A DNA stretch of 64,000 nucleotides. Source: Amoebophrya sp. A120. Taxonomy: Eukaryota; Protista; Dinoflagellata. The position numbers and the translations under genes were made by a program. The stretch spans positions 61,697 to 125,696 of the forward strand of contig CAJINV010000027.1 in assembly GCA_905178155.1 (NCBI GenBank), in the 5' to 3' direction. Shown here piece by piece: positions 1,278-59,517 of this stretch. The stretch's first letter is position 1, and every line of letters starts with the position of its first letter. Below the pieces are notes generated by a model. That model saw only the letters and a list, made by a program, of their open reading frames with translations. It was not told where the DNA came from and did not search any database.

Positions 1278-2725
1278 AGATAAACGCAAATCGCCAACAC
1301 AGCCCAATTATAATACCTTGTGCCGTAAGGCGGGAGGCATTACTTAGAATTTGGTGGAACTGCTTACCAAAGCCTGATGTAGCCGTAGTGATCCTACGGA
1401 ATGCGTTTACGCCCGTCGAGTACCTGTGATGCGCAGTCCGACTATTTTTGTTTACGTATCATAGTCACAAAATAAAAAGTTTCACCAACGACCTTTTTAT
1501 TTCTCGCTAGCGTGGAAGATAGATTCAGTGCTTGTTTGCAAAAGTATCGTAAGGGCGTACACGGCTCTATATATGATGTTTTATTTACTTTAGATTTCTC
1601 TGAAGATCTCAGATGCAGCATGCTTGACCTTGCGTGCAAGAAAGTATAGTTGGAAAATGAAACTTCTATACATGATTGGAAAATTAAATTATCCATGTTC
1701 ACGCTCGAAAAGAGCGCAACAAGAAGCCAAGGAAAGCTGTCATTTAGAAACGTAGCAGCAATTGGGAAATTCACATTCTAATAGCACCTCCTGTCGGTTT
1801 TTATTCTGGGGAACAGCAACAGCATTTCATGGAAAATAGACAATAGACTGTACGAAGAAAACAACAAATCAGTACATGGAGAATCACAAAGATACGCTCT
1901 GACGGACGGATAAAGTTATGTTGTACCAACCTTCGGGCAAAACGAAGAGACGAATTCCTATTCGAAGCATACTTCTTGCACTTTCGCGAGCTGGCAAACA
2001 GCATTCACTAGTGGATAATTCATACGGGGTAGTTCAAGAAAGAAAAACATGGAGAATACATTCTGAAGGACGTAGTAATTATCGTTTCAACACTCTCGTG
2101 CAAAACGAGAAGAAGAAAATGTAGAGGCAAGCGCAGTTTTTGCGCTTCACTTTGAAATTGTAGCAGGCAACAATTCACTTCTCTGCGACCAAGTTCTTCG
2201 CTTCCGTGTTCTGGCGAAGCTGTAACCCTGAACATCCGAGAACAAGCTGAGTACACGGAGCGAAGCCCAGTCTAGAAGTACAGCTCCACACGTACGTAGA
2301 AATCAAAACCAAGTGAGGGCAAAGAGCCTCTGAGGGGACAGAGTGTTGGAGCAAGGCGTGGAGCGACGAGAAGAAAGCGCTTGGCCGCTTAGGCGTGTGA
2401 TTGACCACTCTCTGTAGCTCTGTCTGCGCGAAGCCTCCATCCGTTGGAGGCAGCTCGCGCCCCGTTTATTGCCCTGCTCCGTCTTCCCCTCGGGCACACA
2501 GGGCGCTTCGATGGTGGGGCCGGTCCGGCATGCGTGGATCCAGTGCCGCCCCTGCTGCAGGGCGCGCCTCCGGGGACAATCCTCGAACCGTTCCCGCCGC
2601 TTGTTGGGGGAGAAAATTCTGCGGGCGGAAGTAGTGTTGATATGTTTCTCCCCGGGGCCGCGAGTAGCGGTGGCGGCGGTCCGCCGCGGCGCCCGGGCGG
2701 AAATGGCGAGGACGACCAAGGTCAT

Positions 2726-2905
2726 ATCCACTGTAAGAGTGATGTCTGGGAGGTCTGGAACATCGCAACTTGTCATGCAAAACTTGGATCGTACAGATGA
2801 AGTCTGTGTTGCATGAACGACTGCCGTGAATGTTTCCCTAATATTGTTCTTGCCGAGAGAATAAAACGAAAAGCCAATCTCTCATGCGGAATAGGCATGT
2901 AGAAG
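2726..2905. mobile_element. truncated family A introner (left part)
   Basis: tatccactgtaa...atgtctgggaggtctggaa...acttgtcatgc; no right TIR found nearby. Confidence 0.5.
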
Positions 2906-4231
2906 CCGCCACCCAAATCGAACTTGGAGAAACGAGCTTGCCTTCGCCAAACGGCGCGAGCACCACACCTGGTGATGGGTCATCTCCTTCTAGCAGCTCT
3001 GCTGCTCCCTCTCCCTCTCCCATGCGTGGAAGGATCCAGTGCCGCCCCTGCTGCAGGGCGCGCCGAATCTGAAGGACTGCCTCACGTTCGCCGACAATGC
3101 AACCGCGCCGATTAACTGCGCCGCGGGCGGTAATCGGCGAAATGCTCGGCCTTTTTGCACGAGCTGCGCGCCAAATGTTGACGCCCCAGCCACTGGCGCC
3201 GCCACCGGTGGGCGCCGCTTTTTCGTGGGATCGGAACAGGCCGGCCCGCGCTCTGTTGTGTGATTGCCGCCCAGGGCCGCCGCCGCCCATTCTTTTTTGC
3301 TCGGAATTTTTGGCCTTATAGATTATAGGGGCGCTCTTAAAAAATGATTAGTAGGGAGATCACTTTCTAGAAGCTTCCTCTAGAAGCTTCCCCTAAGAGA
3401 GCTCCTGGAGGAAGCTTCTAAGCGAACGCCTGTAAGAAAAAGAGCGGCATCGTGGGGACCAAAAGCTCTGTATGTGCGAGCGTCCTCCCCGCGGGTGGCC
3501 CCTGGGCATGTTACAAGTGCGGCTTCGTTACTTTGTAGCACTGCTAACAGCCGGGCGCTTTTTTGCAATGCGGGCAGCTGCAAGTCGCGACGCAGGCGGC
3601 AACTTGCGCTAAAGGCTGCAGCTTGCAAAGCAGGCTGACGCCTGCGCTGCGATTTCCGCGCTGTAAGTGCTGCAAGCTGTGCCTTTCTTGCAATTCGGCC
3701 TGCAACATTTTGCGGTCGGTGCACGCTGGCGCTATTGATGCAGGTGGCGGCTACCTGCAACACGGGCCGACGCGCAAGCTGGGACAGACTACAAGTTGCG
3801 ACGCCAGTGGCCGTCTACAACGTGGGCGACCGAGAGCTGGCAACGATGCAAGCGGCAGCCCGGGCCGCAGGCTGCAACCTGCGCCGCACGCGACAGCTTG
3901 ATCTTCAAGCTGCGATCTGCAACGCAACCGGAAAAGGCGTTGCAAACCCTTGCAGCCTCCGCTTCCAGCTCTTGCAATCTGCGCTTGGGGGTGCAACCTG
4001 CATCGCAGACCAAAGACTCCCGAGCCTTTGGCAGGCTAGCGCGCAAACACCGCCGGCTGGAGGAGCCGCAACAAAGCCGCCGGGCCGGTGTTTAGCAGCC
4101 CTATTCTGGCTACCCTCCGGCACCTGCGTCTTTGGGGGGTAGGGGGGGGCGGTGCAAGAGCGCTCCCGCCCCGGCAGAGCGAGCGAGCCCGCCGCCCCAC
4201 CGACCGCCATCCGATGGATCGATCGGAAGCA

Positions 4232-4361
4232 TGGGGATATATCTGGGGATATATCTGGGGACATATCTGGGGACATGTCTGGGGATATATCTGGGGATAT
4301 ACCTGGGGACATATTTATCTGGGGAGGTATCTGGGGAGATATCTGGGGAGATATCTGGGGG
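4232..4361. repeat. 12-bp minisatellite (ATATCTGGGGAN, ~11 units)
   Basis: Eleven GGGG runs at a 12-nt period (one 16-nt step). Confidence 0.95.
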
Positions 4362-5234
4362 AGGCTACAGGAGGAGTAGCGGGAGTGGCTAAAGGAAATT
4401 CTTTGCCTTCTAGAGGCCTCGCTTCGAGAGCTTCGCTGGGCGGCCTGCGGGTGGTCCTTTGTAGAAGTCAGACAGCCCAAGAAACGGGAAGCAGGCCAAG
4501 GCCAGCGGCCGGGCTGGGACGGGGCAGAAGCGCAGGGAACGAAGGCGGGCGCGTCCGCTTCTAATGCGGGCCGCTACTAGTGAACGGCGTCACTAGCAAG
4601 CGCGGGCCCGTTTTGTCATGCTAAAACCGCCTAGAGGGTTCCTGCTAGTGGCCGCGTCTCCACTAGCAGATTCCCACAAGGGCGACTCTGTCGCCAAATT
4701 TGTTCCGGTAGCGTTTCGTGATAGTTTTTTAATTTTAGACTTACTAGACGACCTATCGCCGGCGTCCTGGACGCCGGCGTAGTAGTCTAGTAAAACTATA
4801 GGTCACTGCAGCTTGTTCGCCATTGCAAGAGCGACCTGCTTGGCGGAGATACATTAATTGAGCCCGTTTCTGCTGAATGTTGTGAGGGTAACGACGAGCA
4901 CGAGAGGACAGGGATTTCTGTTGTGGCGAGGTCATACAAGTCTCACTTACAGGCACACCTACGGGTGAGAGTTTAATGGGCGCTTCTGGAGTGAGTGAGA
5001 GTGTTGAAGGGCAATGGGGATGCTTTTCTATTTCTATCATCATGCAGACACCCGTATCGCAAATTCATAGCTCTTTTTCAGTGGAGTTTCCTTTTCCGCT
5101 GAATGCGTGCCGCCGAGATGGTGCAATACGAGCGGGGCCTGCGAGGTATTGAAAGAGGCCTCAGCCCGCATATGTCCGAGGCGCAGAAGGGCGTCACGGC
5201 GTATAAGCTGCAGAAGGCGCAGCACGCCAAGGGT

Positions 5235-5489
5235 TATCCTGTGTAACAACGTTCTTCCCCCGGGGTAATCAGCAGGTTGAGAAGTTGGCAACACAAATGC
5301 AGAACTTTTGGGAAGAATGCATCACAAGTTTCTCTCAGACGCATGAAGAGGCTGCTAGATCTCTTCTTTATAGCATCAAGATCAGTAGAAATGCCTTTTC
5401 CGGGTTTGCGTATCACAAGCTCTTACACTATTCCGTAGATGCAGATCTGCGTGACACCTTGATGGGAACGGGCGTTTTTACTGAGGATA
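5235..5489. mobile_element. degenerate family C introner
   Basis: tatcctgtgtaacaacgt ... gcgtttttactgaggata. Confidence 0.7.
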
Positions 5490-5544
5490 AAGACGAAGCG
5501 CGGATGACAGCGGCGTCGAAACACGTCGCTGGGAAGATAGCTGA

Positions 5545-5793
5545 TATCAACAGAAAAAAAACTCTGGCTCTGGATTTCTTTGTCTTGCTGCGCCTTGTCG
5601 TTCAGTTTTTGTATGGCCCAGAAGCGAAGATTTCAAGTGCGGGCCACAGCGTCACAAGCTTCCACCGGCGCACCTCGCGATGCGTCGGTGGATCTCTTTT
5701 GTTGCTCATGCAGTACAGGTTTCGTCCTTGTCGTCCAGAGCTCGCATGACAAACAAGACCTACCAGATCGTCCAGATGTATTTGCAATCCATA
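5545..5793. mobile_element. degenerate family A introner
   Basis: tatcaacagaaaaaaaactctggctctgga ... ccagatgtatttgcaatccata. Confidence 0.6.
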
Positions 5794-7138
5794 GGGCAGT
5801 ACGACGCGCAAATAACGGCGCAAGAGAAGAAGTACAAGACGCCGCGCAAATGCTGAAGCCTCTCCCGAGCGATCGGCGCCGCCACCGGTGGGCGCCACTT
5901 TTCCCTGCACGGGAGGCCCGCCCGCCCTGTGTTGCGTGCCTCCTGGGGCCGCCGCGCGCCCCTTCTCGGCGCGCCCGCGGACTGGGGCCGGCCAGGTGCA
6001 CACCGGCCCCGCCCTTCGCGCCGGGGCGTTGCCCCAAAGATTATCGGGCGCGCGCGCGAAGCCTATGCCGGCTAGCTGTTGCGCTCTGGCGCGGGCTGTT
6101 GCCGCGCTTTGGCGCGGGCTTTGTGTTGCGCTCGCCGCCGAGGCGCTGGCACAAGTAACGGCCCTGCCGCCCGTCTTCTTCGCGCTGGTCATTCAGGAAC
6201 AGAATTATTACGCCCGAAGGAACAAGGCCGCCCGGCTTCTGCAGGTTTCGCTGCTGGGAAAGACAGTGTGTCGTAGTCTGCAAAACAAAAGTGTGAATCC
6301 TTTGGCTTTTTGCGTCGTGTTCCGTTACTAAACCGATTGCCTTTAGTTTGAGCAGGGGCGAGGTGCTGCAGCGGGTTCGTCCCCGTCACTGCGGGATGCA
6401 GTGTCATGCAAGAAAAGTGAGTGAACGTGAAGGACAGGAGAGCGACAGTGCGGCAACTCAGGGTATATTTTACGGCAGAATCTAAATCTGATTTGAGTGA
6501 AGGAGAGTGAGAATCCGTGAGGCACACAAGCGGTGCGATCTTCTCATGAGCTCATGCGAAGACGGATGCTGATGTGCGTGTGCACCGACGGCACTACTAC
6601 TGTTGCGTGACATGCGAGTTGACGCATAATAGATACACCCTTCGTCGTGCGCAGCACACGTCTCATATTACGCTGTCGCGCACAAGGCGATGAGCAGATG
6701 AGGTGACTGTGCTCACTACTTTGCACCATCATGGAACGAAAGTGTTGCGCTTCGTCTCTGGAGCGGTCCGGTCCGCGAGTTTTTCCGTCTGGACATTAGT
6801 GCTGGCCCCCCGTCCGTGGTTGGGATTCCCGCGCAGATCACCTCCCCGATCCTGGATCCGGGTTCGTGTCATGGTATATGAGAACAGTTGAGGTTTTTTT
6901 TGGATGCAGTAATTCCATTTTTCGTGTTGTCGCGTGAGCGGTTATTTTTACAACAGGACGAAGTTCAAAATTCGTTGCTGAAAATTAACACAAACAGTGG
7001 ACCACGTTTGGGAAGCGCTCAGCGCTCCCGGCGCCTCGAAGATCCAACGCACTGGTGTACCCCCGACGCACCAACGGAGTGCTTACCGCCCACCGACGCG
7101 ACACGCGCGCGGTTTTCCTTGCGGCCGCAGCGGCCTTT

Positions 7139-7344
7139 TGCATGACTCCTGATGTCTGTGATGCATGCCCTAGCATCACACATTTTGTGAGGGCTTCCTG
7201 ATGCCTATACCGCATGACAAATGCTCTTTCCGTATAGCAAAACTTGGACTCTCTTTGCTGCTCATGGGATACAGATTTTTTTAGAATCCAAAATCAGCAT
7301 CACAAGTTGGATTCTTCCAGACCCAGACATTTTTACATTTGATA
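7139..7344. mobile_element. left-truncated family A introner
   Basis: Only the right TIR cttccagacccagacatttttacatttgata is present; starts just after anchor copy 1. Confidence 0.8.
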
Positions 7345-7779
7345 ACGACTACGGCGGTAGTACATCAACGGGCAGTGGTATCCAAGAAAAAAACGTTGTT
7401 AGTGTAGATTTTTGATGCGCAACATGCAAGATGATTGCGTCTGTCATGCTTGGCATGCATCGTAGGGTCCATGAAAGGGCGTTTTCCCGTACTATCTGCG
7501 CATGACAGGTTTTTGCTGTCATGCCAGGCAAATTTGTAATGCTGTTCCTCCAAAAAAGTTACACCTACAGCGTTTTTTTCTTGGATAAGTGGAACTACAG
7601 GAAACAACATTCCCTGGCGGCGCAAGGCCGAAGCGCGGGACTGGTTGCGGCGCGAGTACGGGACGAAATTGCTGGGTGGGGAGTACGATTTTTTCCTGAG
7701 CAGCGTGGAATTGTGGGCAGTAAGTCCCGCGGGAAGTGGGCGGGTGAAATGGGACTTGGTGGAAAAAGTGGATTTGTAA
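7345..7779 (+). pseudogene. captured 3' end of an unknown gene
   Basis: DYGGSTSTGS|GTTGNNIPWRRKAEARDWLRREYGTKLLGGEYDFFLSSVELW...KVDL* is open after removing the family E element. Confidence 0.55.
7379..7587. mobile_element. family E introner
   Basis: TIR tatccaagaaaaaaacg / cgtttttttcttggata; perfect DR agtgg. Confidence 0.9.
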
Positions 7780-8599
7780 AGACGGTGTTGTAGCTGATGT
7801 GTTGGTTCTTCGTCCACAGCTTGCTGGGTCTGCTGCGGTTCCCGGGAGTTGTCTCTCGTGAATTTCTGCAGATCATTCCGACCGTCGTGATACTGAAGAC
7901 ATGTAGAACAAGAGAAAAACAACTAGAACTAGTACACCGTAAAATACTAAATGTTAGCGCGCAGTAGATCGTGGATGGAAATGCGATTTTGGTTCTTCAA
8001 ATGAAATGTAGTGTATTTGTATCGACGCCGCGGGCGAGGGGGGACAGCCTGTCCTCTTCCTTCATCTCATCACCCCCTTTTCATCTCTCATCATGGAATC
8101 GAGCTTCACTGTTGTTCTGAATTTTACGGCTTGAAGATGGTTTACTCTGCCGTCCCCGGCCGCCGCCGGAACCTGAGCGGGCGATGAGTCCAGATAGATA
8201 CCTAGCTCTAGCCAGAAGTTCTAGAAGACGAGTGGGAGCAGATCTTCACTGACCACAGTGACAGAGGATATTAGAAGAACTACAATACGCGGTAAACGTA
8301 CAAATCTAGAGCGGTTTACTAGTGTGACAGCGACAATTGATTCAGTTTCAGACGTTGAGGTTGGTCCTCGTCGGAGTTCACACCACCCTGGAGCGAGATT
8401 CAATTTAGCGTAGAACGAGTTTTCAACAATAATTGTCACATATAGAAATATCAACGGTAGTTAGCTGTTTTAGAGTAACAGAAACAAGATTACGGCGACA
8501 AGTACACCACTTAGAAGAAATCTAGCTGTCACCCCCGACGCACCAACGGACTCCTTACCGGCCACCGACGCGACACGCGCGCGGTTTTCAGGACGTGGA

Positions 8600-8869
8600 T
8601 ATCAAATGCAAAAATATCTGGGCCTCGAAAGTTGGAACTTGTGATGCTAACTTTGGACTCTAAAAAAAATCTGTATTGCATGAGCAGCAAGAGGAGCCAC
8701 GTTTGTGCTACGCGCGGAGGGCATTTGTCACGCGGAAATGGCATCAGGAAGCCTTCCAAAAATGAAAAATCTGTGATGCTGGGTCATGCATTACAAGCAT
8801 CATGGGTCATGCCAGACAAGCATGACAAGCCTTGCATTCTTCCAGACCCAGACACTTTTGCATTTGATA
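8600..8869. mobile_element. family A introner
   Basis: TIR tatcaaatgcaaaaatatctggg / cccagacacttttgcatttgata; perfect DR gtgga. Confidence 0.9.
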
Positions 8870-9221
8870 GTGGAATCCAACAGGAAAGTACAGTCGCACC
8901 AGCACAGCTCCGACGGTTCTCTTCGCGGCCGCGGTCCGCGTACTGGCCGTGTGCTTCTAGCAAGTACAAATCTACTCCTGTGTCCGTGTCTACTCATGCA
9001 GCCGGAAATAATGGCATAGATGTTCCGTCTCCTTTTGCATGACAAACTTGCTAATTCTATCTCTTTCAAGTTTTCCAGCCATGCGAGAAAACGCAATACA
9101 AATTTTTGTTTCCTGTTACTGTAACGCCATGTGCGAGCGTGTAGTTCTTTTCTGTGGGATATCCGCAGATCTGCTTCAAGGTCGGACGCCGTTATGCGGA
9201 CCTCCACTTCGCGCACCAAAC

Positions 9222-9370
9222 TATGAACTGCAAAAGTATCGCACTCGTATAAATGCATTACAAATTTCCTCAGCATGAGAAATAAAATTTGTCATGCTGA
9301 TTTACGCCAAGAAAAAGATTTGTAATGCATGATTGCAATTACTACGAGTACGATACTTTTGCACAGGATA
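9222..9370. mobile_element. family B introner with non-matching flanks
   Basis: Clean TIRs; flanks caaac / ttgag do not form a DR. Confidence 0.85.
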
Positions 9371-9435
9371 TTGAGTAGCGATCCGGAAACTGGATCTCCA
9401 TGCAGGGATCGACGATGGAGAACATGGCACGATTG

Positions 9436-9547
9436 TATCCAAAAAAAAAAAACTGCCATCCCCATCCAATTTGTCATGCAAAACATGTATGAATTTCTGT
9501 GTTTGTGATGCATAAAATGAATGGGGATGGTTATTTTTTCCTGCATA
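9436..9547. mobile_element. family L introner (112 bp)
   Basis: tatccaaaaa...ccatccccat / atggggatgg...ttttttcctgcata; DR gattg/gactg. Confidence 0.8.
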
Positions 9548-9822
9548 GACTGGCCCCGCCCCGGTGCGTGTAGAGGTGCGCGTGCGGCGGTTTGCCGTAG
9601 ATCATCGCGTAAAGGATTATCCCCAACGACCAAATATCCGTCTCCGGCCGCATTTTCATACTGGACTCGTACTGCTCGCCCTGGTGGAAGGCCTCCGGGG
9701 CCATGTACAGAACCGTCCCGCAGTGGCCGTGCCTGCTAATGTGGGTTTTGTTCGGTTCCAGCACCCTGGCGAGCCCGAAGTCGGACAGCTTCACCTTGGT
9801 CCGATTGTCGAACAACAGAAAG

Positions 9823-10008
9823 TATGCTGCGCAAAAGTACCGCACTGCTACTCATTGCAAGTAGAACCATGCATGACAAATCGATGTATAATTTTTATAC
9901 CTAGAAGTCGCCAACCTAGCATGACAAATTGCATTTTGAAAGTTGAGAACAGTTCTTCTACTTGCAATAAGACAAGACTTATTCTGTGCGATCCATTTGG
10001 ATTGCGTA
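9823..10008. mobile_element. degenerate family B introner
   Basis: tatgctgcgcaaaagtac left end; removal rejoins kinase subdomains VIb and VII. Confidence 0.75.
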
Positions 10009-10980
10009 CGAAGTTGCCGGGTTTATTCAGGTCAAAGTGCACGATCTTCTGTGCGTGAATGAAGCGGACCGCGGCAACCATTTGTGTGAAGCAATGCAGG
10101 ATAACCGACAACGGACTCCTTACCGGCCACCGACGCGACGCGCGCGCGGTTTTCCTTGGTCGTCTGGAATGCAGCACCGGTCATGCTCGGTGCTGCATTC
10201 CAGACGACATGGGTCGTAGAGAATCTGCATGACAAGTCTCGCAACGTTCCAGACCCAGACATATTTGCATTTGACAGGCCGCTGCTGCTGACGATAGCCA
10301 TCTCGACCTGTCCAACATATCCATAATCGCACACGAAGAGTCCTCCATAATCGAAGCAGAAGATGATATGCAGGAGAAAAACAAGTGTGTGTAGTGTAAA
10401 TCTTTTGGACGCCGGAAAGCGCCAACATCACTTGCAATTTGGCGCAGGTGGTAAAATAGAACAAGTCCGTGCTCCTGTATTAAACCCGGCACGATGACTG
10501 TAGCGGGTGCCCTTTAGTATACAGCTCCCTAAAAATTACATTCTTCGGCATTACGGAAGATCTACACTAGCAAGCACATTTTTTTCGCTGCGACACAACC
10601 TACAGGCCACAATCAGAGTCTGCACGAACTGGTAACACCATTAAGCGGATGTGGTGCGGCTGCGGGCAGTGCATTTTCCGACGTTTCGCAACAGCTGCCG
10701 CCGCCACCACAATTGGACCTTTCCTATGTTCATTTGTCGCGTCAGCCTTCGTCCCTGGTCGGGTTGAGCAATAACACGAGCGTTGACGACGGCGGCGTCC
10801 CTGCAGGCTCGCTGGATATGAGCAACAATACCTTGGACAGCATGACGCCTCCGACTCCCCCTGTCCTCCGATACCTTGGACAGCAATGCAGGATAACCGA
10901 CAACGGACTCCTTACCGGCCACCGACGCGACACGCGCGCGCGGTTTTCCTTGCGGCCAACCGACAACTCCTTTCCTTTAC

Positions 10981-11242
10981 CACCCCCTAGTCAAGATGGG
11001 GAATCGGCTAGACAAGTCCACAAGTTTTGGCTGTTTTGCATGACAACTTTGGGCTCGAAGCGTAGTGCTCCTGTTTGAGGTAGTTCAGCAGCATCACGCA
11101 TCTAGTACATCGTGCTGACTGGAGCATTACAAATCCCAAAACACAACTGCAAAATGCTTCTCATGGGGCTTCGCATGACAAACATTTTGAGCCTGCAGAT
11201 TAGCATGACAATTCTGGGACGGGGACGCTTTTACACAGAATA
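10981..11242. mobile_element. left-truncated family C introner
   Basis: Right TIR ggggacgcttttacacagaata; left TIR missing, starts just after anchor copy 4. Confidence 0.8.
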
Positions 11243-11293
11243 GCCCAGCGGCTCATCCGGGACCAGTTGAAGTTGTCGCTCGCCCTCTTCCAA

Positions 11294-11570
11294 TACCAAC
11301 TGCAAAAATGTCTGGGGCTGGAAGAATGCTGCAAGACTTGTCATGCAGGTTTTGTATGATCCATGATTTCTGTGATGCACCGCGTAGCATTACAGAGTTA
11401 GTGGGTGCCTCCTGATGCCCATACCGCATGAGAAATACCGTAACCGCGTAGCAGAAACTGGACTGGTGTTGCTCCTCACGCATTACAGATTTTTGTAGGA
11501 TCCAAAGGCAGCACCAGCATAACAAGCTGGAACCCTATTCCGGACCCACTCATATTTGCATTTATGCATA
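11294..11570. mobile_element. family A introner
   Basis: taccaactgcaaaaatgtctggggctggaag left end; DR tccaa/tacaa. Confidence 0.8.
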
Positions 11571-14146
11571 TACAAGGGGCACGAAAGGCCTGCGAGCAGG
11601 TCGTCGGTGCTCCGGAACAGGTGGTCGTCAACAGGCGTCGGGTGCTGCAGAAGCAGTATCAGAAGATCGTGGGAGCCATCCGAGACACCGTATCATACTG
11701 AAAACTTTATCGTACTGGCAGGTGCGACGTGGTATAAAATCTGTCTGCATCTTCGTCCACAAAAAAAAATTTCCTTTGAAACGCAATTTTTTGCAAGATA
11801 GCGCAGAGTCGTCTTAGACACGTTGCCGTGTGCTGAGTTCGGCCACAATCCAACCATTGTGGAGAAACCTTTTTTCTTTGAACAGACGAAATCAACAAGC
11901 TCCATCTGTCAGGCTGACATGAATCTTTTCGACATGTCTACTTAGCTGTCTTTGAAGACCCGTAGAAAGACACACTGCCAGCTTGATGTAAAGTTTTCAG
12001 TTTGAGAACGCAAAGAGCGAATCGACGCGGTGGTCAAGCTGCTGGAGCAGCATGACAATGTCGTGGAGCGCGGCTACTACCAGGCCATGTACGGAACAAC
12101 TGTCGAACAAAACATTGTGCGCAGCCAGACCACAAACGGAGATGCTAGTGCCGGCACTAGGCTACAACAGGGACAGCCGAGTAACTCTCTCGTCGCGCGG
12201 CCAGTAACTCTCTCGTCGCGCGTCTCTCGGCTCGTTGTCACCCCCGACGCACCAACGGACTCCTTACCGGCCACCGACGCGACACGCGCGCGCGGTTTTC
12301 CTCATTTGGAAATGGGATCCTTCAATTGGTGCTTACGATACGACTCTGGACTTGCCGACGACATTGCGATACTGGTTGTGGATGAGAAAACGATGCTACG
12401 ATGGGAAACCGATGCTCTAATGGGAGAAGATGACGTGATGAGGATTGGGGCACGAAGCTTGTGGAAGTTGTTTATGGATTTATGCTATACAGATTTGGAC
12501 TTACGATTTAGAATTCCATGTAGGATATAGACTTTTAGTTTCGGCCTGTTTCTGTATCAAGCTTCTGTAAGATTTATGGTTTTAGATTTTGACTATGAGA
12601 AAAAGCGTTGGGGGCGGTTTGGGTAAATGAAAACTGGTTGGAAACGCTATTTCTCATAGATCAAATTGCAAAAATGAACAGGATGATAAGAAAAAGGAAG
12701 CGAAATCGATCGAGCAAGAAAAAGACCAAAAACCAAGGAAAAGCAAGCAAATTCTTGCCACGATCGACAGAAAAAGGAAAAGGAAAAGAGAAGAAGAAGA
12801 AGGCAAAGACATTAGGTTTGATTTACATTGGATCCGCATGAAAAACTGGACTTTCTTACTACTTTCAAGGAGCGGAGCCATGGCTACGGTCACAATGGGC
12901 AAGGTTAGGAATACGAATTTAGCATAAGAAACTGGAAAAACTAGACTGCGGATTAAGGATTTGTAATGCGAACCTATTGAATTTGAACTAGTTTTAGTTG
13001 GTGTTCGATTATGATCTCGGTATGCTTGCGGTTGAGAATTAACCTCTCCATTTCGAAACTAGATCCTTCAATTGGTGGAGAACCTGGGCATAGTTCGACT
13101 CAGATGCAACGCGTAGCCTTACCGTTTTAGCTAGATACCCCACCACTATGACCCCGAGCAGAATGCTGAAGGAAAAGCCGCACCGCAGAAGCAGGGAAGA
13201 CCGCCGCAAAGAAACCGCAAAACAACCAGAACAGGAAGAAAGAAGGCTTGCTATAGGGTCTATAGCAACAGACGAGAACTCACCTGGACCGCAGGCGAAG
13301 TAGAAAACAGTGGAGATGTACGAACCACGCACGACGTGGGGTGTTGATGGAGTACGACCGCGCGAAATTGATTTGGACGGGGAAATGCTGCAACAGGATA
13401 GATTGGAAACCGACAAGACCAGTCCCAGAACCGGAGGCCGCTTTCGTTATTTCTAGCACTACACGGGAAAGATTTGTTACACGGGATTTGTTTTTAGACC
13501 ACGGGATATATTTGTTTAACGAGACCTCAGTCGCGCTACAGAGTTCGCGGGAACTAGTTCGACAAACGACGCGGCTGGGGTACGTTCCAAGATTTGTTTA
13601 CGGATACGGGTTTTATTTGGGTTCACGATTTACGGACTCCTTACCGGCCACCGACACGACGCGCGCGCGGTTTTCCTTGTCGCAGCGGCAAAGCTTCTTT
13701 GCGTGTCTTGCATTCATTTTCTCGTGCATCAGTCGTGTACAGTAGCTAGATTGACATTGTATAATTTCTCCCCTTTTGCTGTTCCTCGCGCAGTTCATGA
13801 GTCGCCTTTCTTCAACTGGAAAATGAAAAAATTCGCGGCCAGGAAAATCAACAATGGTTTTCAATTTTTATGCAAGACAAATGTCCGTCGAAGTTGTGAT
13901 GCTGTTTTTCATATACAGTAACAAAGGCACGTAGAACAACTCGAAGGCGAAGTGGAGGAAGTCGAAGCAAATCCTTGATGTCGAAGCAAATCCTTGATAT
14001 CGAGGTTGCTGTGGTGTATGTTGAGAGTGAGATGAGGGACGAGGGCATACAAGCAAAACCATTCACACAACGAAAATAGGCCATGTTCTTGGTGCATAAT
14101 GCAGTACATTCAACAAAAAAAGTCTCACTTGCTATACAGCAAAGCT

Positions 14147-14420
14147 TATCCACTGCAAACATGTCGGGTGGTCTGGAAATTTCTTATGCTATTTCAGCAA
14201 TATTAATGGTTGGCGTACTGCAATTTGCAGCTAAGCATGACAAGTTTACAGCTAGTTCGTACATGATGCTGCGTTTTCCGCAAGGAGGCCCGCGCTTTTG
14301 GTGACACGCATGAGGCTTTATTTTCGCTTCTCATGCATGACAGAATTGAGAGTGAGGGGAAACCAACAAGACAAACCTTTATTCATCTTCCAGACCACCC
14401 AGACGTATTTGCGATGCATA
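14147..14420. mobile_element. degenerate family A introner
   Basis: tatccactgcaaacatgtcgggtggtctggaa / ttccagaccacccagacgtatttgcgatgcata. Confidence 0.75.
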
Positions 14421-14548
14421 ACTACCCAGACGTTGCCCGCGTAGTTTTGGCGCTTCTTCTCCTTCTGCTAACCTTCGTAGCTTGGCCGGCGGGACTCGGG
14501 ACACGGTACCGTGGGTCTGGAGAGTTGCAGCTGGTACTTCTGCATCAG

Positions 14549-14808
14549 TATACACTACAAACACGTCTGTGTCTGGAAGGACGCAAACCTGTGATGTGGA
14601 AACTGAAACGGGCAAAAATCAGTGCTGCATGGGCTGCGGTTGCAAAGGGTGTGCGTTGTTGTCGTGCAGAAGAGGGGTCCAGGAGTCTCCGCAGAGTTTG
14701 TCATGCCCCTTGTTTAATACTCCATGGTACAGACCTCCTTGCAGTGACAGAAACGGCATGAAAGATGGCTTCTTCCTTCAAGACCCAGACACATTTTTGC
14801 ATTTGATA
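14549..14808. mobile_element. family A introner
   Basis: Degenerate TIRs; perfect DR atcag. Confidence 0.8.
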
Positions 14809-15001
14809 ATCAGCGCAGCTGCGTATCGTTCCGACGCTTTCAGCTCCATGACATGCGTATCCGATGCGAATGTGTCTGGGTTCTTTGGTAAACTGGAACT
14901 TGTTATGCTTGCCTTGTATTTCTGCAAAAGCTGTATTGCATCAGCGGACTCCTTACCGGCCACCGACGCGACGCGCGCGCGCGGTTTTCTGTGGACGTGG
15001 A

Positions 15002-15152
15002 TATCAAATGCAAAAATATCTGGGCCTCGAAAGTTGGAACTTGTGATGCTAACTTTGGACTCTAAAAAAAATCTGTATTGCATGACCAGCAAGAGGAGCC
15101 ACGTTTGTGCTACGCGAGGAGGGCATTTGTCATGCGGAAATGGCATCAGGAA
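15002..15152. mobile_element. right-truncated family A introner, near-copy of 8600-8750
   Basis: Same flank (ggacgtgga) and internal sequence as the 8600 element, with a few substitutions. Confidence 0.85.
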
Positions 15153-15398
15153 AATTGCTTACGCGGCATGATCTGAGACGGCCACCAATCTCTCATGCAG
15201 AGAAATTTGTCTCTCTCTCATGCAGAGAAATTTGTCTTGCTGAATTGACAACAAATGTGTAGCTGTAACACTTTTTTCGTTCGATATTGACGAGGAGTTA
15301 AGCCTATCCTTCGACGACCTCTGTCGGTCGTCCGTGGCGGAGCTAACCCAGATCCTTTTGGACGCGCTTCAGCGGCGGCCGCTCGACCTGCCGAATGA

Positions 15399-15608
15399 TA
15401 TTCTTTGCAAAAGTATAAAAATCGACGTATTAGTATGTCGTGGTATTAAAAACTATTGCAATTGTACACATTAGCTGCTCAGCATCTTGACAAAAAATGG
15501 AACAATATTTCATGCTGATTTAGCTTGGGAGAAAGATGATTTGTCTTGTATGACTGCGATAATTCGACGTACGAGCACGAGTGCAAGAATACTTTTTCAT
15601 CGAGGATA
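15399..15608. mobile_element. degenerate family B introner
   Basis: tattctttgcaaaagtat / atactttttcatcgaggata; DR aatga/actga. Confidence 0.7.
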
Positions 15609-15708
15609 ACTGACCCGGCCCAGCAAGTCGTTTTACTATGGGGAGGGGGGATTTTTCATTCTGATACCAGCGCGGTCCTTCTCATCCGGGACCAACAAGC
15701 CTCAGCTC

Positions 15709-15857
15709 TATCCTGTGCAAAAGCATCGTATTCGTATAAATGCAAGTCTTGCATTACAAATCTTTCTTTTAAGGCAAATCAGCATTACAAATTTTATTTC
15801 TCATGCTGAGAAAATTTGTAATGCATTTATACGAGTGCGATACTTTTGCAGTTCATA
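15709..15857. mobile_element. family B introner
   Basis: Clean TIRs; perfect DR agctc. Confidence 0.9.
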
Positions 15858-15877
15858 AGCTCCGAAGGCAAGCAACG

Positions 15878-16055
15878 TATCCTGTGCAAAAGTATCGCAC
15901 TCGTATTGCAATCATGCATATACTAATCGTAATCTTTTTCTTAAGGTAAATCAACATGACAGATTTTCTTGTTTCTCATGCTGTCTGAGGAAATTTTTGT
16001 ATAGTGCATTTATAATATTAATACCACGAGCGCGATACTTGTTTTGCAAGTCATA
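15878..16055. mobile_element. family B introner
   Basis: TIRs present; DR caacg/cgacg. Confidence 0.85.
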
Positions 16056-16119
16056 CGACGAGCGCGAATTTGATTTTTGGCATCGGCTACAGCAAGACCG
16101 CCACGGAGCACATGGACAA

Positions 16120-16441
16120 TATCAAAAGGAAAAATCCCCCCTCCCCATATCAAAACGAAGTTTCTGATGCAGGATTTGCGTACACAAATCAGCTTTGTAT
16201 TGCAGGAAGGCACTGCGGTCGGATCCCCAAGCTAGGTAGGGGCGTATGCGTCTAGTTGTTCAGCATGGTAAGCGGCTCCCCTTTAGGCCCAACAGCATGA
16301 CAAATCGCTTCCATAATGGGGCAGAAGCTTCTGCCCTTGTCTTCTTGCAAAACAAATCTGATTTGTGACCTCAAATCAGCAACACAAATTTTCGCAAACA
16401 TGCATTTTCAATATGGGGAGGGGGGATTTTTCCTCTCAATA
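16120..16441. mobile_element. family G introner
   Basis: TIR tatcaaaaggaaaaatcccccctccccatat / atatggggagggggatttttcctctcaata. Confidence 0.9.
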
Positions 16442-16575
16442 GTTCCAGCCAGACGACCAGACCGAAGAGGGGAAGAAGATGGCCGCGGACGCTTTTTCCA
16501 ACATTGCTATGCAAAGCCCGGAGGAGAAGCTTTCCGAAGATCCGCTGGACCCCGATGGGCTGCACTCAGCCTGGG

Positions 16576-16837
16576 TATCAAATGTAAAAATGTCTGGGTC
16601 TGGAAGAATTCAACTTGTCATGCTAAATCTGAAGCATGCAAAAATCTGTGTTGCATGATTACCAAAAGTCGTCCAGTTTTGACCAAGTCGGGAGGTAGTT
16701 TCTCATGCAGGATAGGCATTAGAAAGGTCTCGCAGAATCTGCCATGCTAGGTTCTGCATTCCAGACCTCATGGGTCAGGGAAAAGCAGCATGACAAATCG
16801 CGCACTCTTCCAGACCCAGACATTTTTACATTTGATA
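16576..16837. mobile_element. family A introner
   Basis: Near-perfect ~30-bp TIR; perfect DR ctggg. Confidence 0.92.
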
Positions 16838-19029
16838 CTGGGACACCTTTTACGATTCTTTTCTTTCCGGACTCCTTACCGGCCACCGACGCGACACGCG
16901 CGCGGTTTTCCTTGCGAAAGGGAATAGTGAGGACACTGTAATGCGCTGCCAAGCATGACATGTATTTCCGTGGTTTTGAGTTGCGTACTTCGCATGAGAA
17001 ACTGCGTTTTTGCATGACAGGCAAGACGAGGAGCTCTTTGCGGTGACGCAACACAGAGTTCAGAGTCATGCCAGATTAGCATGACAAATCTCGCAACTTC
17101 CCAGAGGACCCAGACATAGTTGCACTGGATAAGGGGGAAGAATTACCGATTTTAGCGGAAGAGATTGCCGATGCGGAGGAGCTGTGCTTCTTCTTCGAGA
17201 ACGAAAATTTGTCGAGACGAGATTATTCACCTTCGTCAAAATCTCCCTCCAAATCAACAACGCGAGCGGGGCCTGGAGGTGCGCAACTATCCTCGTCGAA
17301 ACAAACCACGACGGTTGTTATCCAAAAGCAAACCCTGGGTCTGTTGATGAAGCAGGCAGTTGAGATCACGACGGCGTTCCGGACAGATTTGCTCATCCTG
17401 GAGTTTGACGAAGTAATTCTGTCGAAGAAGAACGAGAAAATCGAGAAGCTAGACAGTCAAATCAAGCAATTCTGGGTCAAGAAAGTGAATCAGCTCGCAG
17501 GACCGCACGCCGGCCACCGACGCGACACGCGCGCGGTTTTCCTTGCGGCGCACAGTTGAGCTGGCCAGAACACTGGGCCCGCAGCGGCCGCGCAGCTAGC
17601 ACAGGGCGCGGGCGGCAGGGCCGCGGAGTAGATCTCGGGGCCGGTCGGCGCGCTTGTACGCAGCCGGCCCTCAGGCCTGGGCCAGATCTTGCCTGGGGCC
17701 CGCCGGCTGCTCCCGGTCATCGATCTGCGCCCCCGTTTATTCGAATCGAAAAGGTGGCGAGCGTCCCTGTGCGCCGCTGCACGGGGGCGCCTCCAGATAG
17801 AAGTGTCACACGGACGCCCCACGACCGCGCACAGACGAAGGCGCAGCGGCGCGTTGGTGTTGCCCGTCCTGGGGCCACCGCCGCCACCAAGTTATCACAC
17901 CCACTGCAACTGTCGTGACAGCGGGAAACCTCTCCTGTGATTTGGTGGCATGCAGGCGCCGCTGCCGGGCCTTTGTAACAGGACATTTTGAAGCAGAGGA
18001 AACTTCGTGAACAGAAACACCGATGTGGTTGGTGAAGAAATGCGGCGGGGCTGCAAAAATGACCGCCTGCGTAATTCTAAATCATGTTCATCTTTCTAGA
18101 GCACGCGGTCCGACTGAGACTGTGCGAAGAGGATCCCGGAAGGTCGTGTACTAAGATTTTCCACTACACGACCCTCCTCAATAAAATCAACGAAGATCCT
18201 ACTGTTGATCCGCAAACCCGATCCGGCAAAGGAAAAATGATGCAAATGGAAATTATACAGCTCTTCGGCGGGTGCCAGCACTGCCACCGGTGCCACAAGA
18301 AAAAAATCACTTTTTCAAGATACCCATTTCGTTTTTTCGGTTCTTCGCAAATTGAAACTGCATGAAGCTCCTCCTCCTTCCTACGGAGCCCGCGCACGGA
18401 TGGGGGCCTCCAACGCAGGGCGACCAAATTTTTTTCTTTTTCGGTAAAAAATCAGCCCCAACCCCTCGCGAATTTTCAAAAAACACTCGAAAAAGCAAGT
18501 TCGGCTTCAACGTTGCAGGCGTGCTAGACCCTATGCCCCTCTTGTTGACAAAGGAGCTACTACGTGCACATGCGCAATGGATCTTCCGTCTGTAGCCTTT
18601 GCTGCACTTCTACACACCGATCGCTTTCCGCAATAAAATTCATGATGATCATCTGAGAATTTTTATTGTTCCCGACTACAAAAGAACCTATGTTGGCGTT
18701 CCACAAACTCCTGTCGGTACTGCGAAATCAGTTTCAAAAAGATCATTTTCCTCACGTTCCGTTCCTTCGGTCTTTCTCACAAATGAGCATGATCAGTGAT
18801 AAAAATGCACCTCAAGTAGATCCTCTTCCCGACAAACACAAAACGTTGCGGAGCTGTTTCTGCAACACAAGAAGGTCAGATCCTACGGTAGAAGAAATAA
18901 ATGCATACAACGTGTCAACGCATCGGTTGCTGGCATTGTTCTGCGGCCATGTAACTACAAATAAATGCGTAGTTGTCCCATTCTGTGCCAACATAAGTAG
19001 ATGTTTTATTCCCAATGCAACAGGTTAAA

Positions 19030-19322
19030 AGCTTTGAAGCAATAACAGCTTCTTCAAACTCGCATCAACAATACTACTAGCTGATCCGCGCAAGTGGAAG
19101 TCCTGCTAGAGCTAGGAAATAGTTGTACAACCAGGAGGTAAAAAACCGTTTGAGTTTATACCGTGTTATAGCAACATCAAAGTGGCTCTTCAAAATTCTC
19201 ACTTTAACGGTGGCTCTTTCAAACTAACGCATAACAGGTGTATAGAGCTTTGAATCAGCGTCTTACAACTCGCGTGAGCAATACTAGCCATTCCGCGCAA
19301 GTGGAATTTCTGCTAGAGCTCG
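19030..19322. repeat. diverged ~85-bp direct duplication
   Basis: agctttgaa...caatactag...tccgcgcaagtggaa...ctgctagagct at ~19030-19115 and ~19246-19321. Confidence 0.75.
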
Positions 19323-20717
19323 ACAGTACTGCGGAGAAACAAGAAGTACCGTGTAACAACTGAGAACTTGTTTTCGGCTTGTTTTGAAAGGTTGTGATAT
19401 TAAAGTAGGAATATTCATCACGTTCAGGGCAGCGCTGCCATTCCTTTACTCTGGCAGTAGAGGAGCCTTATTTTCCCCGTGAAAATACGACTACTTGCAA
19501 AAAAATATCAACCAAGACTTCAGACCTGTTGATGCAAACCAATCTGCCATCGCAGTAGAATAGACAGCATATTTTTAGTGGCCATAGCTGCGTCATACTT
19601 TGCTCGCCGCGAGGGAGCAATTTTTCATCGAACACACCGAAAAACCAAAAAGTTTATTCTGCACAACGCGGTGGTCGGACTTTGGGTTTGGCCTTTATAC
19701 CATTTTCATTTCGCGGCAGAAGCTGAAACGGCATTCGTCATCGTGTGTGGCACCATTCTTGCAGGAGCTGCTTTTTTTGGCAGAACCTCGCAGGCTGCTG
19801 CTCTTTATTAGTAGTTCTTAGGGGAGCTTTTGCGCTGTATGATTTATTGAAAAAGGAGTAGGAAAAGTAGTATTGGCATTGTTAAAAAGAGTCAGAACTG
19901 TAATCGCACTAGCTTTGCTACGTAGACCATACCCGACATTATCTTTTCTTCCGACGAGATTGCGTACTCTTGTCGAGATTTTACTACTTCGAGCGATTTT
20001 ATTCACAGCACAAAGAAACTGGAACTGCGTTGAGAACTTGATGTACTAGTACACTTTTGGTTTGTTCGCACGAGAAATTTACCCGAACAGGAAGGTTTCG
20101 GCCGCTGAAACATACAAAAGGAAAAGCACTACCTTTATTCGAATTTTTCAACAGGAACTCTTTGCTGGACTAGCACATAGTATCTTTACTTTCCGTCAAA
20201 ATTGGGTGAGTCTCAATTTCGTCGAGACCGAAAAGGGTTATTCAGCTGTTGTACTATTTGTTGTATTAAACAGAACGTATTCACTACCGGAGTATTATCC
20301 AGAAGCACGTACTGCATCGTCGTTGTTCCGAGAGCAAGAGCAACACGAAGCGGAAAGAACGTCAAGCGCATTAAACTATCCACAAAGAGCACTGCATTTA
20401 TTCTGCCAAGAGCCGAGGCCTTGTTTTATCTATTTTCAATCGTTTTTAATCATCAACGTCCGACTTCTCAACAAGGTCAAGACGTCGAGAAAATACCTGA
20501 AGCTATTGTACAATTTTTGTTGAAGTAACCACTACTTCAGTCACACAACTTTTCAAAGAAACAGTACTAGAATTGCACATCAAAGAAATACAGGCAGCAG
20601 AGTCTCACAACAGAGATCTACTCTTGCGAAGACATTAACAGCAGAAGTGCGTTGTATCGCAGTTGCCACCAGGTTTATTTTTACCAACAATTTTTCTCGC
20701 TTTACTTCAAAATCAAA

Positions 20718-58000: not shown

Positions 58001-58038
58001 TGCAAATCATGCGCGGCTACCAGGGGCCAGGGGTATGA
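49082..58038 (+). CDS. ~1,912-aa signal-peptide/single-TM protein with DUF4116-like repeats; 10 exons
   Basis: Exons 49082-50169, 50485-51037, 51365-53449, 53607-54941, 55210-55216, 55371-55420, 55689-55979, 57169-57181, 57438-57474, 57759-58038 total 5,739 nt in frame. Repeats ALEYAS / LRFASPRLQDDRDL / LEFASERLRGDRDLV / ALQFLASALRDD; TM-like LFWTVTGVAIFLGTGLVVLAVIMIFY. If 55980-57168 is not spliced the CDS stops at 56024. Confidence 0.8.
50170..50479. mobile_element. family D introner
   Basis: Perfect TIR tatggaagcgtcaggtttgaaatc; perfect DR ttcta. Confidence 0.95.
51038..51359. mobile_element. family G introner
   Basis: TIRs; perfect DR tcaga. Confidence 0.93.
53450..53601. mobile_element. 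family B introner
   Basis: TIRs; perfect DR ccgag. Confidence 0.92.
54942..55204. mobile_element. family A introner
   Basis: TIRs; DR agcaa/aacaa. Confidence 0.92.
55217..55365. mobile_element. family B introner
   Basis: TIRs; perfect DR agaaa. Confidence 0.93.
55421..55683. mobile_element. family A introner
   Basis: TIRs; perfect DR ctgag. Confidence 0.94.
55855..55979 (+). repeat. ~96-bp coding tandem repeat (CGSGFNMLGPPWCEMHAEGDDLRDVHLYADAT); second unit interrupted by three insertions
   Basis: cgtgtggttctggatttaat at 55855 and 55951; the second unit resumes at 57169, 57438 and 57759. Confidence 0.85.
55980..57156. mobile_element. ~1.18-kb insertion with degenerate ~55-bp TIRs and a 12-bp flanking direct repeat
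   Basis: aataatatgtta at 55968-55979 and 57157-57168; left gcgttagcat...gaatctgcagtgaattt pairs with right aaattcactagagattc...atgctagcgc. Confidence 0.8.
57182..57432. mobile_element. family A introner
   Basis: TIRs; DR atgcg/ctgcg. Confidence 0.92.
57475..57753. mobile_element. family C introner
   Basis: TIRs; perfect DR gttct. Confidence 0.95.
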
Positions 58039-59517
58039 CTCGACAGATTTCGTGGTCGTCGTTGCCGTTTTTTTTTTAGCAAGTGGAAGACCATTAAGAA
58101 TAAGAGAGTTACAGTGACCACGGCACAAGAAAAATTTATTTGAAATTCCACGACCTCGACTACCCAGGCAAAACAAGCTCATCGAAACGTAGTTTTCGAA
58201 ATGTTTTTTTACCGCGAAATGTTTCCCAGAGTAAGTACCCCGACGACAACAAGTCTACACTTCCTATCTCTGAGGAGGTTCTTACCCCCAACTGTACAAT
58301 CATTTTTTTCATCATCGTATAAATATTCATTTTCTACCGATACTGTGCCCTGCGAACAACGCGCATCGGCATCAGGACGCGAGTTCGAAAGCTTTGCCTC
58401 CAAAACCTGTTGTGCTTGGCGCCTGAAGAACGAGTCGCTCTGCGCAACAGGGTGAGAGTGAGCAAGCTACTCTGTGCAATATTTATAAATCGATTTTATT
58501 CGCCAACATAGTAGTACAAGTGCGATGTATAAAGTAGTAGTACAAGTAGCATTTTAGTGATAGTCATGAGCGAGAGAAGCCGCGTCATAAGGGCGAACGT
58601 GATGATGCGTTAGACCAGAGATCCTTGTCCCCTAACCGCTTCACGTGAGGGGAGGAACAGTAAGAAAGCCTACCAGCAAATGACGTTCCTTGATGTCACA
58701 GACACAGTGGAAGGCCGCGGTTAAATGCTAGAGGTTCACTTTGATTATTTTTCATACAGTGTAGTGTGCACTATAGTCGAGGAGACGGGAAAAACTGTAG
58801 CAGCAAATGTGTGATGAGATGTGCTTTATGCAAAATCTTTTTTTTTTACGCGACTGGCTTGAGGGCTTCGGCTTTGATGTTAAACAGCGAACAATAAGTG
58901 CATTTGGTGTATGAATTTACAGTAACCGATAGCATCGACTAAAAGTGGTCCTCGTGGAGCAAGTGAATTCGTCAATCGTGTGAACTCTATGGGATTCCGA
59001 ATGAAAGTGATTTATGTTGAAAATAATAATATACGTATGTTAGATCGGGATCGGACAAGTGTTGGAGCCGTCCCATGGAACTCATCAGAAGTCGATCGGT
59101 GATTAGTGATGTTCACCTCAATCTTCAGATCGGTAAACAGATTAATGTGTGTGTTTTTTCCGCGTGAGGTTTCTTATCGTTTTTTCCGAGTCGCTCTGTC
59201 GTACGAACCGCATTACAAATGCGTCTTTCTTTGTCGCATTGTTTCTTACATCGCAACACAGGCATACATATTTCTTCGGGAAAAATGGAACAACATCGTG
59301 TGAGTCGTTAGATAGTCCCTGGAACCTGTACAAACAATTTTGTCTGAGCCTTTGGCTCAAGGTTGAGCAAAATACACAGGAAGAAGTTTTTTGTCGTTCC
59401 CCCGGGAAGAACGCAAGTGTTCAGGTGGCAATACGAAGGTTTGCATCTTCATCAATTAGCTATCAGCTGTCCGTTTGCAGCCTTGTAACAGACAGAGTGA
59501 TTTGATCTGGTAACCAA

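Follow-up and report, generated by a model that had tools for sequence, protein, structure and literature searches.

How does a eukaryotic locus come to hold one short sequence nine times over, with a different piece of DNA between each copy and the next? We addressed this question for an array in a 64,000-nt window of the genome of the dinoflagellate Amoebophrya sp. A120 (GenBank assembly GCA_905178155.1, contig CAJINV010000027.1, forward-strand positions 61,697 to 125,696); all coordinates below are positions in this window. An earlier note, made from the sequence alone, had described nine direct GC-rich repeats (anchors, here A1 to A9) separating captured gene fragments (spacers, here S1 to S8), and had proposed a site that repeatedly acquires genomic fragments while duplicating itself. 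That proposal is borne out by the array, the target duplications of 38-81 bp, the genomic inserts, the scars at the junctions and the position of the site in exon 2 of a spliced gene, here called G; of the mechanisms then offered, the template-switch or repair hotspot fits. We give about an even chance to the reading that the site has been repeatedly cut with offset nicks, and that polymerase-assisted end joining has trapped genomic DNA and recreated the target. We read the array as a repair scar and not as an adaptive device.

Nine anchors at a single locus

A 17-nt anchor core occurs nine times between 7086 and 17526, always on the plus strand (starts at 7086, 8558, 10123, 10915, 12267, 13644, 14956, 16879 and 17510), where 0.16 occurrences are expected by chance; none of 100 shuffles reached nine. 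Neither this count nor a self-BLAST found an anchor match outside the array in the 64-kb window, which confirms the nine same-strand anchors first described. The spacers measure 593-1878 bp (n = 8), in agreement with the spacing of 0.6-1.9 kb given before. All copies contain a constant stretch of 32 nt (consensus positions 32-63), around which entries span 33 nt and exits 18 nt, so the variable borders are upheld as well.

The first copy, A1 (~7056-7135, placed by alignment), lies within exon 2 of G. It is followed by A2 (8527-8589, consensus 1-63), A3 (10109-10158, consensus 18-67), A4 (10882-10957), which opens with 19 nt of the end of S2 and continues with consensus 18-72, A5 (12236-12302, consensus 1-65), A6 (13632-13679, consensus 20-67, with one private substitution), A7 (14945-14989, consensus 21-63), A8 (16868-16916, consensus 21-69) and A9 (17510-17599), which begins at consensus 32 and runs on into the single-copy right flank. 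Relative to A2-A9, A1 has three substitutions and a 1-nt deletion, while A2-A9 differ among themselves, outside a CG run, by one substitution in ~400 sites (four if an A/G change in the run is included). A CG-rich hairpin followed by TTTT is predicted in the anchor, with z from -0.6 to -1.4 across five folds.

The anchor is local rather than dispersed. Summed depth in sequencing run X1 was 413-447 over the anchor core versus 45 in the flank (6500-7134 examined), which fits 9-10 copies, and all four X1 loose ends at the anchor, among the pieces listed, match junctions of this array. Hence the possibility that the anchor is a small dispersed element, raised earlier as an objection, finds no support, and neither does the expectation of other anchor arrays, of which X1 gave no sign. 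Anchor patterns had no match in the metagenome_contigs and viral_contigs collections, and none of 15 Rfam matches reached the gathering score.

The array is not an assembly artefact

We compared contigs of short-read type and reads from four of the 11 listed runs (X1, X3, X4 and X9, with X2, X5-X8, X10 and X11 left out). X1 and X3 are one sample, which may be the source of the assembly itself; X4 comes from another sample and study, and was treated as RNA on a program's guess and one GT..AG joint. Counting as crossed any anchor/spacer junction with at least 31 letters on each side among the contig pieces listed, we found 7 of 16 crossed: S1/A2 by X3; S4/A5, S6/A7 and A7/S7 by X4; and A5/S5, S5/A6 and A6/S6 by X1. 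The crossing of S3/A4 came to 30 letters, and A9 continues into a right-flank contig of 5006 bp that starts at 17514 (depth 42.7; X1 flank depth 43-51). Raw RNA reads of X9 (188, all partial alignments) gave depth in 4 of 30 bins, all of them introner-rich (introners are short inverted-repeat introns, described below).

A public protein model from Amoebophrya sp. A120, P0002 (214 aa), is itself chimeric over S4-A5-S5 (11560-12530) and 99% identical to the window frame. It has two accessions and is placed on two contigs, neither longer than 354 kb, although depth is single-copy, and represents either a redundant scaffold or two structural alleles. This double record would suit a chimera of assembly or amplification, as would the possible identity of X1 and X3 with the assembly's own sample and the fact that the full order of units rests on the assembly, short contigs showing it incompletely. 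Against a chimera stand the crossed junctions, three of them in the other sample and study, and the A120 genome paper nowhere uses the word "amplification" in its main text. We therefore consider the array confirmed as real and a chimera, which the earlier note had named as one possible refutation, extremely improbable.

The anchor is part of an exon

The anchor is more than the acquisition site that had been supposed. The recurrent site is real, and it belongs to an exon in a host gene that is spliced. An X4 contig covers 6617-6872 and joins to 6997 across a GT..AG gap that skips 124 nt. This places part of exon 1 of G at 6617-6873, a canonical GT-AG intron at 6874-6997 and exon 2, through A1, at 6998-7135, all on the plus strand. 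Contigs of both X4 and X1 cover 7002-7119, and an X4 contig covering 7090-7134 continues beyond 7134. Because the joint removes 6874-6997 and the contigs run through A1, we place A1 in exon 2.

The ancestral frame of G likely ended at a stop near 17597 in the right flank, so that the continuation of A9 would be the original 3' end of the gene. With A1 in exon 2 and this ancestral end in the right flank, the left flank, one anchor and the right flank together would reconstitute the site before insertion. In the exit zone, after position 71, A9 is longer than A1 by 30 nt (17550-17579), which lie between short GGC repeats; the excess reflects either a further, tenth scar of repair or a loss from A1 by deletion.

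A paralog of G shares its intron (10 differences in 120) and the exon start, and is not matched over the anchor. Exon 1 of G has 5 nt more than the paralog, apparently by duplication near 6770-6775 (the paralog's loose end at 6770 was read by eye), and A1 lacks one base that A2 and A5 retain (read by eye from 30-letter loose ends and the alignment). On one contig of 1528 bp an exon-2-like piece (7002-7041) precedes an exon-1-like piece (6739-6770), so the paralog appears to be tandemly repeated elsewhere. A protein search with exon 2 gave no match among six candidates, a weak blank; a WD40-like or transposase-like reading of G was weighed by eye and dropped.

The spacers are pieces of genomic DNA

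S1 (7136-8526, plus strand) begins in an introner without its first ~53 nt and continues through a 34-nt exon, a whole introner (7379-7587), a last exon and downstream DNA; it had no Pfam match. S2 (8590-10108, minus strand) comes from a protein kinase gene, lies in antisense orientation, contains introns and introners and is cut off within the kinase domain, and Pfam Pkinase matches (E = 2.8e-18 and 1.8e-4) corroborate the kinase C-lobe reported before. S3 (10159-10881) opens with a perfect 21-bp fold-back onto a cut introner and closes with an 11-nt copy. S4 (10958-12235, plus strand) consists of locally templated filler, a cut introner and exons, and ends in a 20-nt templated duplication; its exon at 11593-11653 resembles 31956-32068, in the window gene with open reading frame (ORF) 31991-33391, which is a diverged family member and not the donor. 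S5 (12303-13631) is intronless multi-copy DNA, and a 75-codon open frame follows A5. S6 (13680-14944) is genic DNA with introners and ends inside one. S7 (14990-16867, plus strand) is a mosaic of 160 bp like the start of S2, a switch near 15152 and other gene pieces. S8 (16917-17509, plus strand) holds a cut introner, an exon for residues 1209-1329 of the A120 protein P0001, and ~13 nt unlike the donor protein.

The introners begin with TAT and reach a run of A, as described for A120 introners (PMC7789003). Five are cut at an anchor or within 35 nt of it, at junctions 7136, 10171, 10980, 14945 and ~16929, in keeping with the cut introners that the earlier note had seen. Of the introners within the array, 7 of 19 are partial, compared with 4 of 37 elsewhere in the window, a descriptive comparison only since the reference set was built from this window; one counted as partial (14334-14412) is probably an old whole element. 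The longest A run at a spacer end is 4, which gives no poly(A), and captured orientation is mixed (S2 antisense, S8 sense). Since cut introners were kept, poly(A) is absent and both orientations occur, we conclude that the spacers derive from genomic DNA and not from cDNA, as had been proposed.

S5, first described as a Lys-rich piece, proved to be multi-copy, with depth of 133-360 versus ~45, and has a repeated motif at 12316 and 13062 that we take to resemble the end and primer-binding site of a long terminal repeat (LTR) element; it is likely a piece of an LTR retroelement. Its frame had no Pfam or Atlas match, and Pfam found no reverse transcriptase in any spacer frame tested. The spacers are mostly unrelated to one another, as claimed, with the exceptions that the first 160 bp of S2 recur at 98% identity where S7 starts and that A4 holds the last 19 nt of S2.

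The expectation of an intact donor for each spacer is upheld only in part, with one donor shown, that of S8. S8 matches P0001 (1684 aa, encoded on a 13.2-Mb contig) at 113 of 122 residues (93% amino-acid identity), with eight replacements and one extra residue. Parts of S1, S2, S5 and S7 have close relatives, to judge from variant contigs (for S7 at 15306-15357 and 15692-15696) or from increased depth. For S3, the second half of S4 (11410-12235) and S6 we detected neither a close donor nor a 31-mer branch in common with other loci. All three lie on unbroken contigs (S3, 10251-10911, depth 39.5; S4, 11410-12265, single depth; S6, 13576-14974, depth 43, with 0 differences). A donor at 10% divergence is expected to give 2-5 perfect 31-mer runs per stretch; the unbroken single-depth contigs thus suggest that these donors are likely absent or diverged by more than ~10-15%. 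Protein searches returned no match for the S3 frame among 1096 candidates, and for the S4/S5 frame only the array's own chimeric model P0002; both are weak blanks. Four of eight exonic variant letters are synonymous, which together with the few changes in S8 is too little for a functional foreign source to be claimed from purifying selection.

Junctions record repeated insertion at one site

On the anchor consensus, the array enters A2 at 1, A3 at 18, A4 at -1, A5 at 1, A6 at 20, A7 and A8 at 21, and A9 at 32, and leaves A1 at 81, A2 at 63, A3 at 67, A4 at 72, A5 at 65, A6 at 67, A7 at 63 and A8 at 69. Each of the eight inserts is therefore flanked by a target duplication (81, 46, 69, 72, 46, 47, 43 and 38 bp in order), and each duplication includes positions 32-63. 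Entries cluster near 0 (3 of 8) and at 18-21 (4 of 8); that of A4 falls at -1 despite the kinase DNA there, suggesting that position is set by distance. They rise from left to right along the array (P = 0.006 over all 40,320 orders), and exits show no trend. A 10.5-nt periodicity of entries (0, 21, 32) was weighed by eye and dropped.

Several junctions carry scars. Local repeats of at least 15 nt (15-21 nt) are present in 3 of 16 junction flanks versus 2.6% of 1500 background windows. The fold-back at the start of S3 occupies 10159-10208, and the 11-nt copy at its end, of 10828-10838, supplies the 4-nt overlap with A4. The 19 nt of S2 retained in A4 belong to 33 nt upstream that A4 has in common with A3, a copy of the S2/A3 junction, so this duplication reached into an earlier insert. 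Likewise, the opening of S7 copies the A2/S2 junction, which suggests that a broken anchor copied a sister anchor before switching. On parsimony, the simplest history has S1, S4, S5, S6, S7 and S8 inserted at the right-hand anchor and S2 and S3 at an internal one.

[quoted passage not shown] The ends would prime on, or anneal to, a loose fragment of 0.6-1.9 kb, with snap-back and short templated fillers, and fill-in of both overhangs would duplicate the stretch between the nicks, so that the target is recreated. Later rounds would mostly strike the right-hand copy, with two at an internal copy (S2 and S3), and entry points would erode rightwards as a result. A broken anchor would at times copy from a sister anchor, as at the start of S7, which would also keep A2-A9 alike; A1 carries mutations and may have ceased to be cut. 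Nicking at offset positions, end joining that captures DNA, and fill-in together explain why the duplication is bounded and the entries cluster, as well as the scars and the iteration. As to the cutter, we would guess first at a mobile element's endonuclease that recognises sequence, and second at structure-linked or transcription-linked nicking at the CG-rich hairpin.

The components of this account are known from engineered breaks and tumours, and we file the array as break repair with ectopic insertion in the form of a natural eight-round array. Paired nicks yield tandem duplication of the segment between them over repeated rounds of cutting, and Pol-theta products contain in-cis templated inserts (Schimmel et al. 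2017, PMC5730883). The array resembles these products of classical non-homologous end joining and theta-mediated end joining in its offset-nick duplication, repeated rounds, snap-back and templated inserts: variably trimmed direct repeats of 38-81 bp, putatively of the segment between nicks, flank all eight inserts, and snap-back or templated inserts (3 of 16 flanks) exceed the 2.6% background. It differs in that the earlier work used engineered Cas9 nickases in mouse cells, whereas here the process is natural, with eight rounds and distant fragments of 0.6-1.9 kb.

Several points weigh against this reading. Kilobase-size ectopic capture is absent from the paired-nick account in the available portion of PMC5730883. 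Thirteen of the 16 junction flanks have no long templated scar. The order of events is a parsimony reconstruction that the CG-run variants, of which all four states occur, do not follow. At the amino-acid-changing rate of S8 and its donor, ~12 anchor substitutions are expected, versus the one (or four) seen; the likeness of A2-A9 needs an extra assumption, be it homogenisation, mutation during capture or a non-resident source. None of the 28 window ORFs encodes a nuclease, reverse transcriptase or transposase. The copy number rests on summed contig depth, a rough guide only, and the array is one locus in one genome, with neither an empty site nor a second strain in evidence.

If the account holds, repair at a self-recreating break site can give a eukaryote an apparently polar layout of repeats and spacers, without any dedicated machinery for acquisition being in sight. 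The array would then be a countable record of eight repair events in the Amoebophrya lineage, and would point to a nuclease or fragile structure in these parasites.

Other explanations

The alternative that survives best, unlikely as we judge it, is that a replication fork stalls at the CG-rich hairpin and the nascent strand switches to distant templates before returning slightly upstream, in iterated cycles of templated insertion (microhomology-mediated break-induced replication or fork stalling and template switching). The geometry, with return to the host upstream of departure, is that of a cycle that rereplicates a host segment, as in cancer genomes (Li et al. 2020, PMC7025897), where distant segments are likewise inserted. 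The donor of S8 persists and so was copied, and the multi-template mosaic of S7, which starts from A2/S2, and the templated scars also fit. However, rereplication is tightly confined to a segment of 38-81 bp whose ends cluster, the hairpin is unexceptional (z ~ -1.4), and persistence of the template at its source, seen for S8, was undetected for S3, part of S4 and S6, whose lack of 31-mer branches to other loci is not predicted by copying of the resident genome. The tumour events are moreover somatic, with 2-7 templates per event, whereas here the array returns to the same 32 bp of core from one insert to the next, and for three of the inserts no close donor was detected.

Somewhat less likely than template switching is a natural tape recorder, in which a sequence-specific nuclease would keep cutting a self-renewing target, and the locus would log DNA in time order, including DNA of other Amoebophrya lineages met in a shared host or by mating. 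Such a source would explain the spacers without a donor here. If they do come from other strains, the array would be direct evidence that cryptic lineages of the parasite exchange DNA.

More doubtful again is a meiotic hotspot, at which SPO11 would break two chromatids at different positions and the ends would be joined around an excised fragment, at times from the diverged genome of a mating partner; this would account for missing or over-diverged donors. For a hotspot, eight rounds of breaks within a zone of 80 bp would be narrow. Meiotic genes, SPO11 among them, are expressed in A120 (bioRxiv 2025.04.10.648098), and mouse hotspots, as recurrent break sites with SPO11 double cuts, take up fragments from other loci and yield fold-back inversions and tandem duplications (Lukaszewicz et al., bioRxiv 2020.06.23.168138), all of which have counterparts here. 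The mouse inserts are single events of 15-349 bp, seen within deletions, with duplications of kilobase size, in contrast to the 593-1878-bp inserts with short duplications in the array.

We regard as improbable an evolved cassette system, whether its captures were fused to G as swappable 3' ends, as in Rhs proteins, or served as a memory giving regulatory RNA, as in clustered regularly interspaced short palindromic repeats (CRISPR) or piRNA traps. The anchor is close to where the coding part of spliced gene G ends, RNA of this gene appears to enter S1, a 75-codon frame is open after A5, and acquisition looks polarised: the trend in entries suggests that the array grew opposite its transcribed side, apart from two internal events. 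CRISPR arrays also have repeat units separating acquired pieces in polarised order. Unlike them, the array has no uniform spacer size (593-1878 bp) and no Cas family in the 28 window ORFs, and CRISPR-DR20 scores only 21.5-23.8 bits vs 42, so we rejected a CRISPR array as such. Displacement arrays of bacterial rhs C-terminal ends (PMC2935791) share the repeated gene-end units between unrelated acquired pieces and the polarity, but the present array has neither intact in-frame tips nor recombinase genes. Four of eight spacers start in or beside a cut introner, two differences of G, from its paralog or from A2/A5, shift the frame (read by eye), and the system would comprise a single locus with eroding anchors and no machinery nearby.

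Only slightly less credible is insertion of cDNA of cellular RNAs, with long target duplications, by the machinery of a site-specific non-LTR retrotransposon. SLACS/CRE and R9 are site-specific non-LTR elements that form tandem arrays. Elements with a restriction-like endonuclease (RLE) insert in tandem and can make 20-bp duplications, and Utopia arrays consist of insertions separated by duplicated target (PMC4640811); A120 has non-LTR elements (PMC7789003). In such arrays, though, the insert is the element and the 3' junction is precise, whereas here unrelated pieces of genomic DNA were inserted and the two junctions are variable, with entries from -1 to 32 and exits from 63 to 81. The inserts are neither element-derived nor RNA-derived, being unspliced and of mixed strands, with introners retained and cut, no run of A beyond 4 at their ends and no reverse transcriptase in the frames tested, and the target is an exon, not an RNA gene or repeat present in many copies (of 15 Rfam matches, none reached the gathering score). 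RNA-templated retroposition is thus largely refuted, and the RLE endonuclease alone is still a candidate cutter.

The Pack-type or Helitron origin that the earlier note also offered is very improbable and can be set aside: intron-bearing gene fragments are captured and a predicted GC hairpin is followed by TTTT, but the ~9-10 copies are all in this array, the anchor is continuous with both single-copy flanks, and there are neither terminal repeats nor precise termini. Pack-type transposons have terminal inverted repeats, a short target duplication of fixed length, dispersed copies and captured intron-bearing gene fragments. The last feature is shared; the anchors stand in direct orientation, arms of introners or fold-backs make up the 25 longest of 112 inverted pairs, the duplications vary, and the copies (9-10 by depth) are not dispersed. 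Helitrons have precise 5' TC and 3' CTRR ends, a subterminal GC hairpin, no target duplication and a RepHel protein, whereas both ends vary here and no CTRR stands at the anchor exits; RepHel was not found among the 28 window ORFs.

Two further systems are close to the repair reading that we prefer. Class 2 templated sequence insertions patch breaks with DNA from distant loci (PMC5110952), and inserts at antibody loci show a recurrent acceptor taking up exons with flanking introns (PMC9457163). In the available portions of both, there is one insert per allele and self-renewing target duplication is not described. We found no natural array of this kind in the literature, subscription papers being thinly covered, and, among the papers listed, nothing on break repair in Amoebophrya.

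Other features of the window

The array is flanked by ~9 kb of gene-poor DNA (1300-7000 and 17600-20570), with palindromes at 3368-3420 and 4741-4793 and a 10-nt tandem repeat at 4232-4360; no Pfam domain exceeded the cut-off in the frames tested there. In the left flank, a direct repeat of 40-44 bp (2529-2568 and 3021-3064) surrounds around 450 bp with half an introner (2725 to ~2900), and may be a coding repeat, both copies lying in similar open frames, or another capture. A diverged GC-rich repeat of 110 bp (76%) occurs at 3184-3293 and 5864-5966, with a weak third echo near 17856-17885. Further away, gene segments at 55900-60600 are tandemly duplicated with 88-91% identity.

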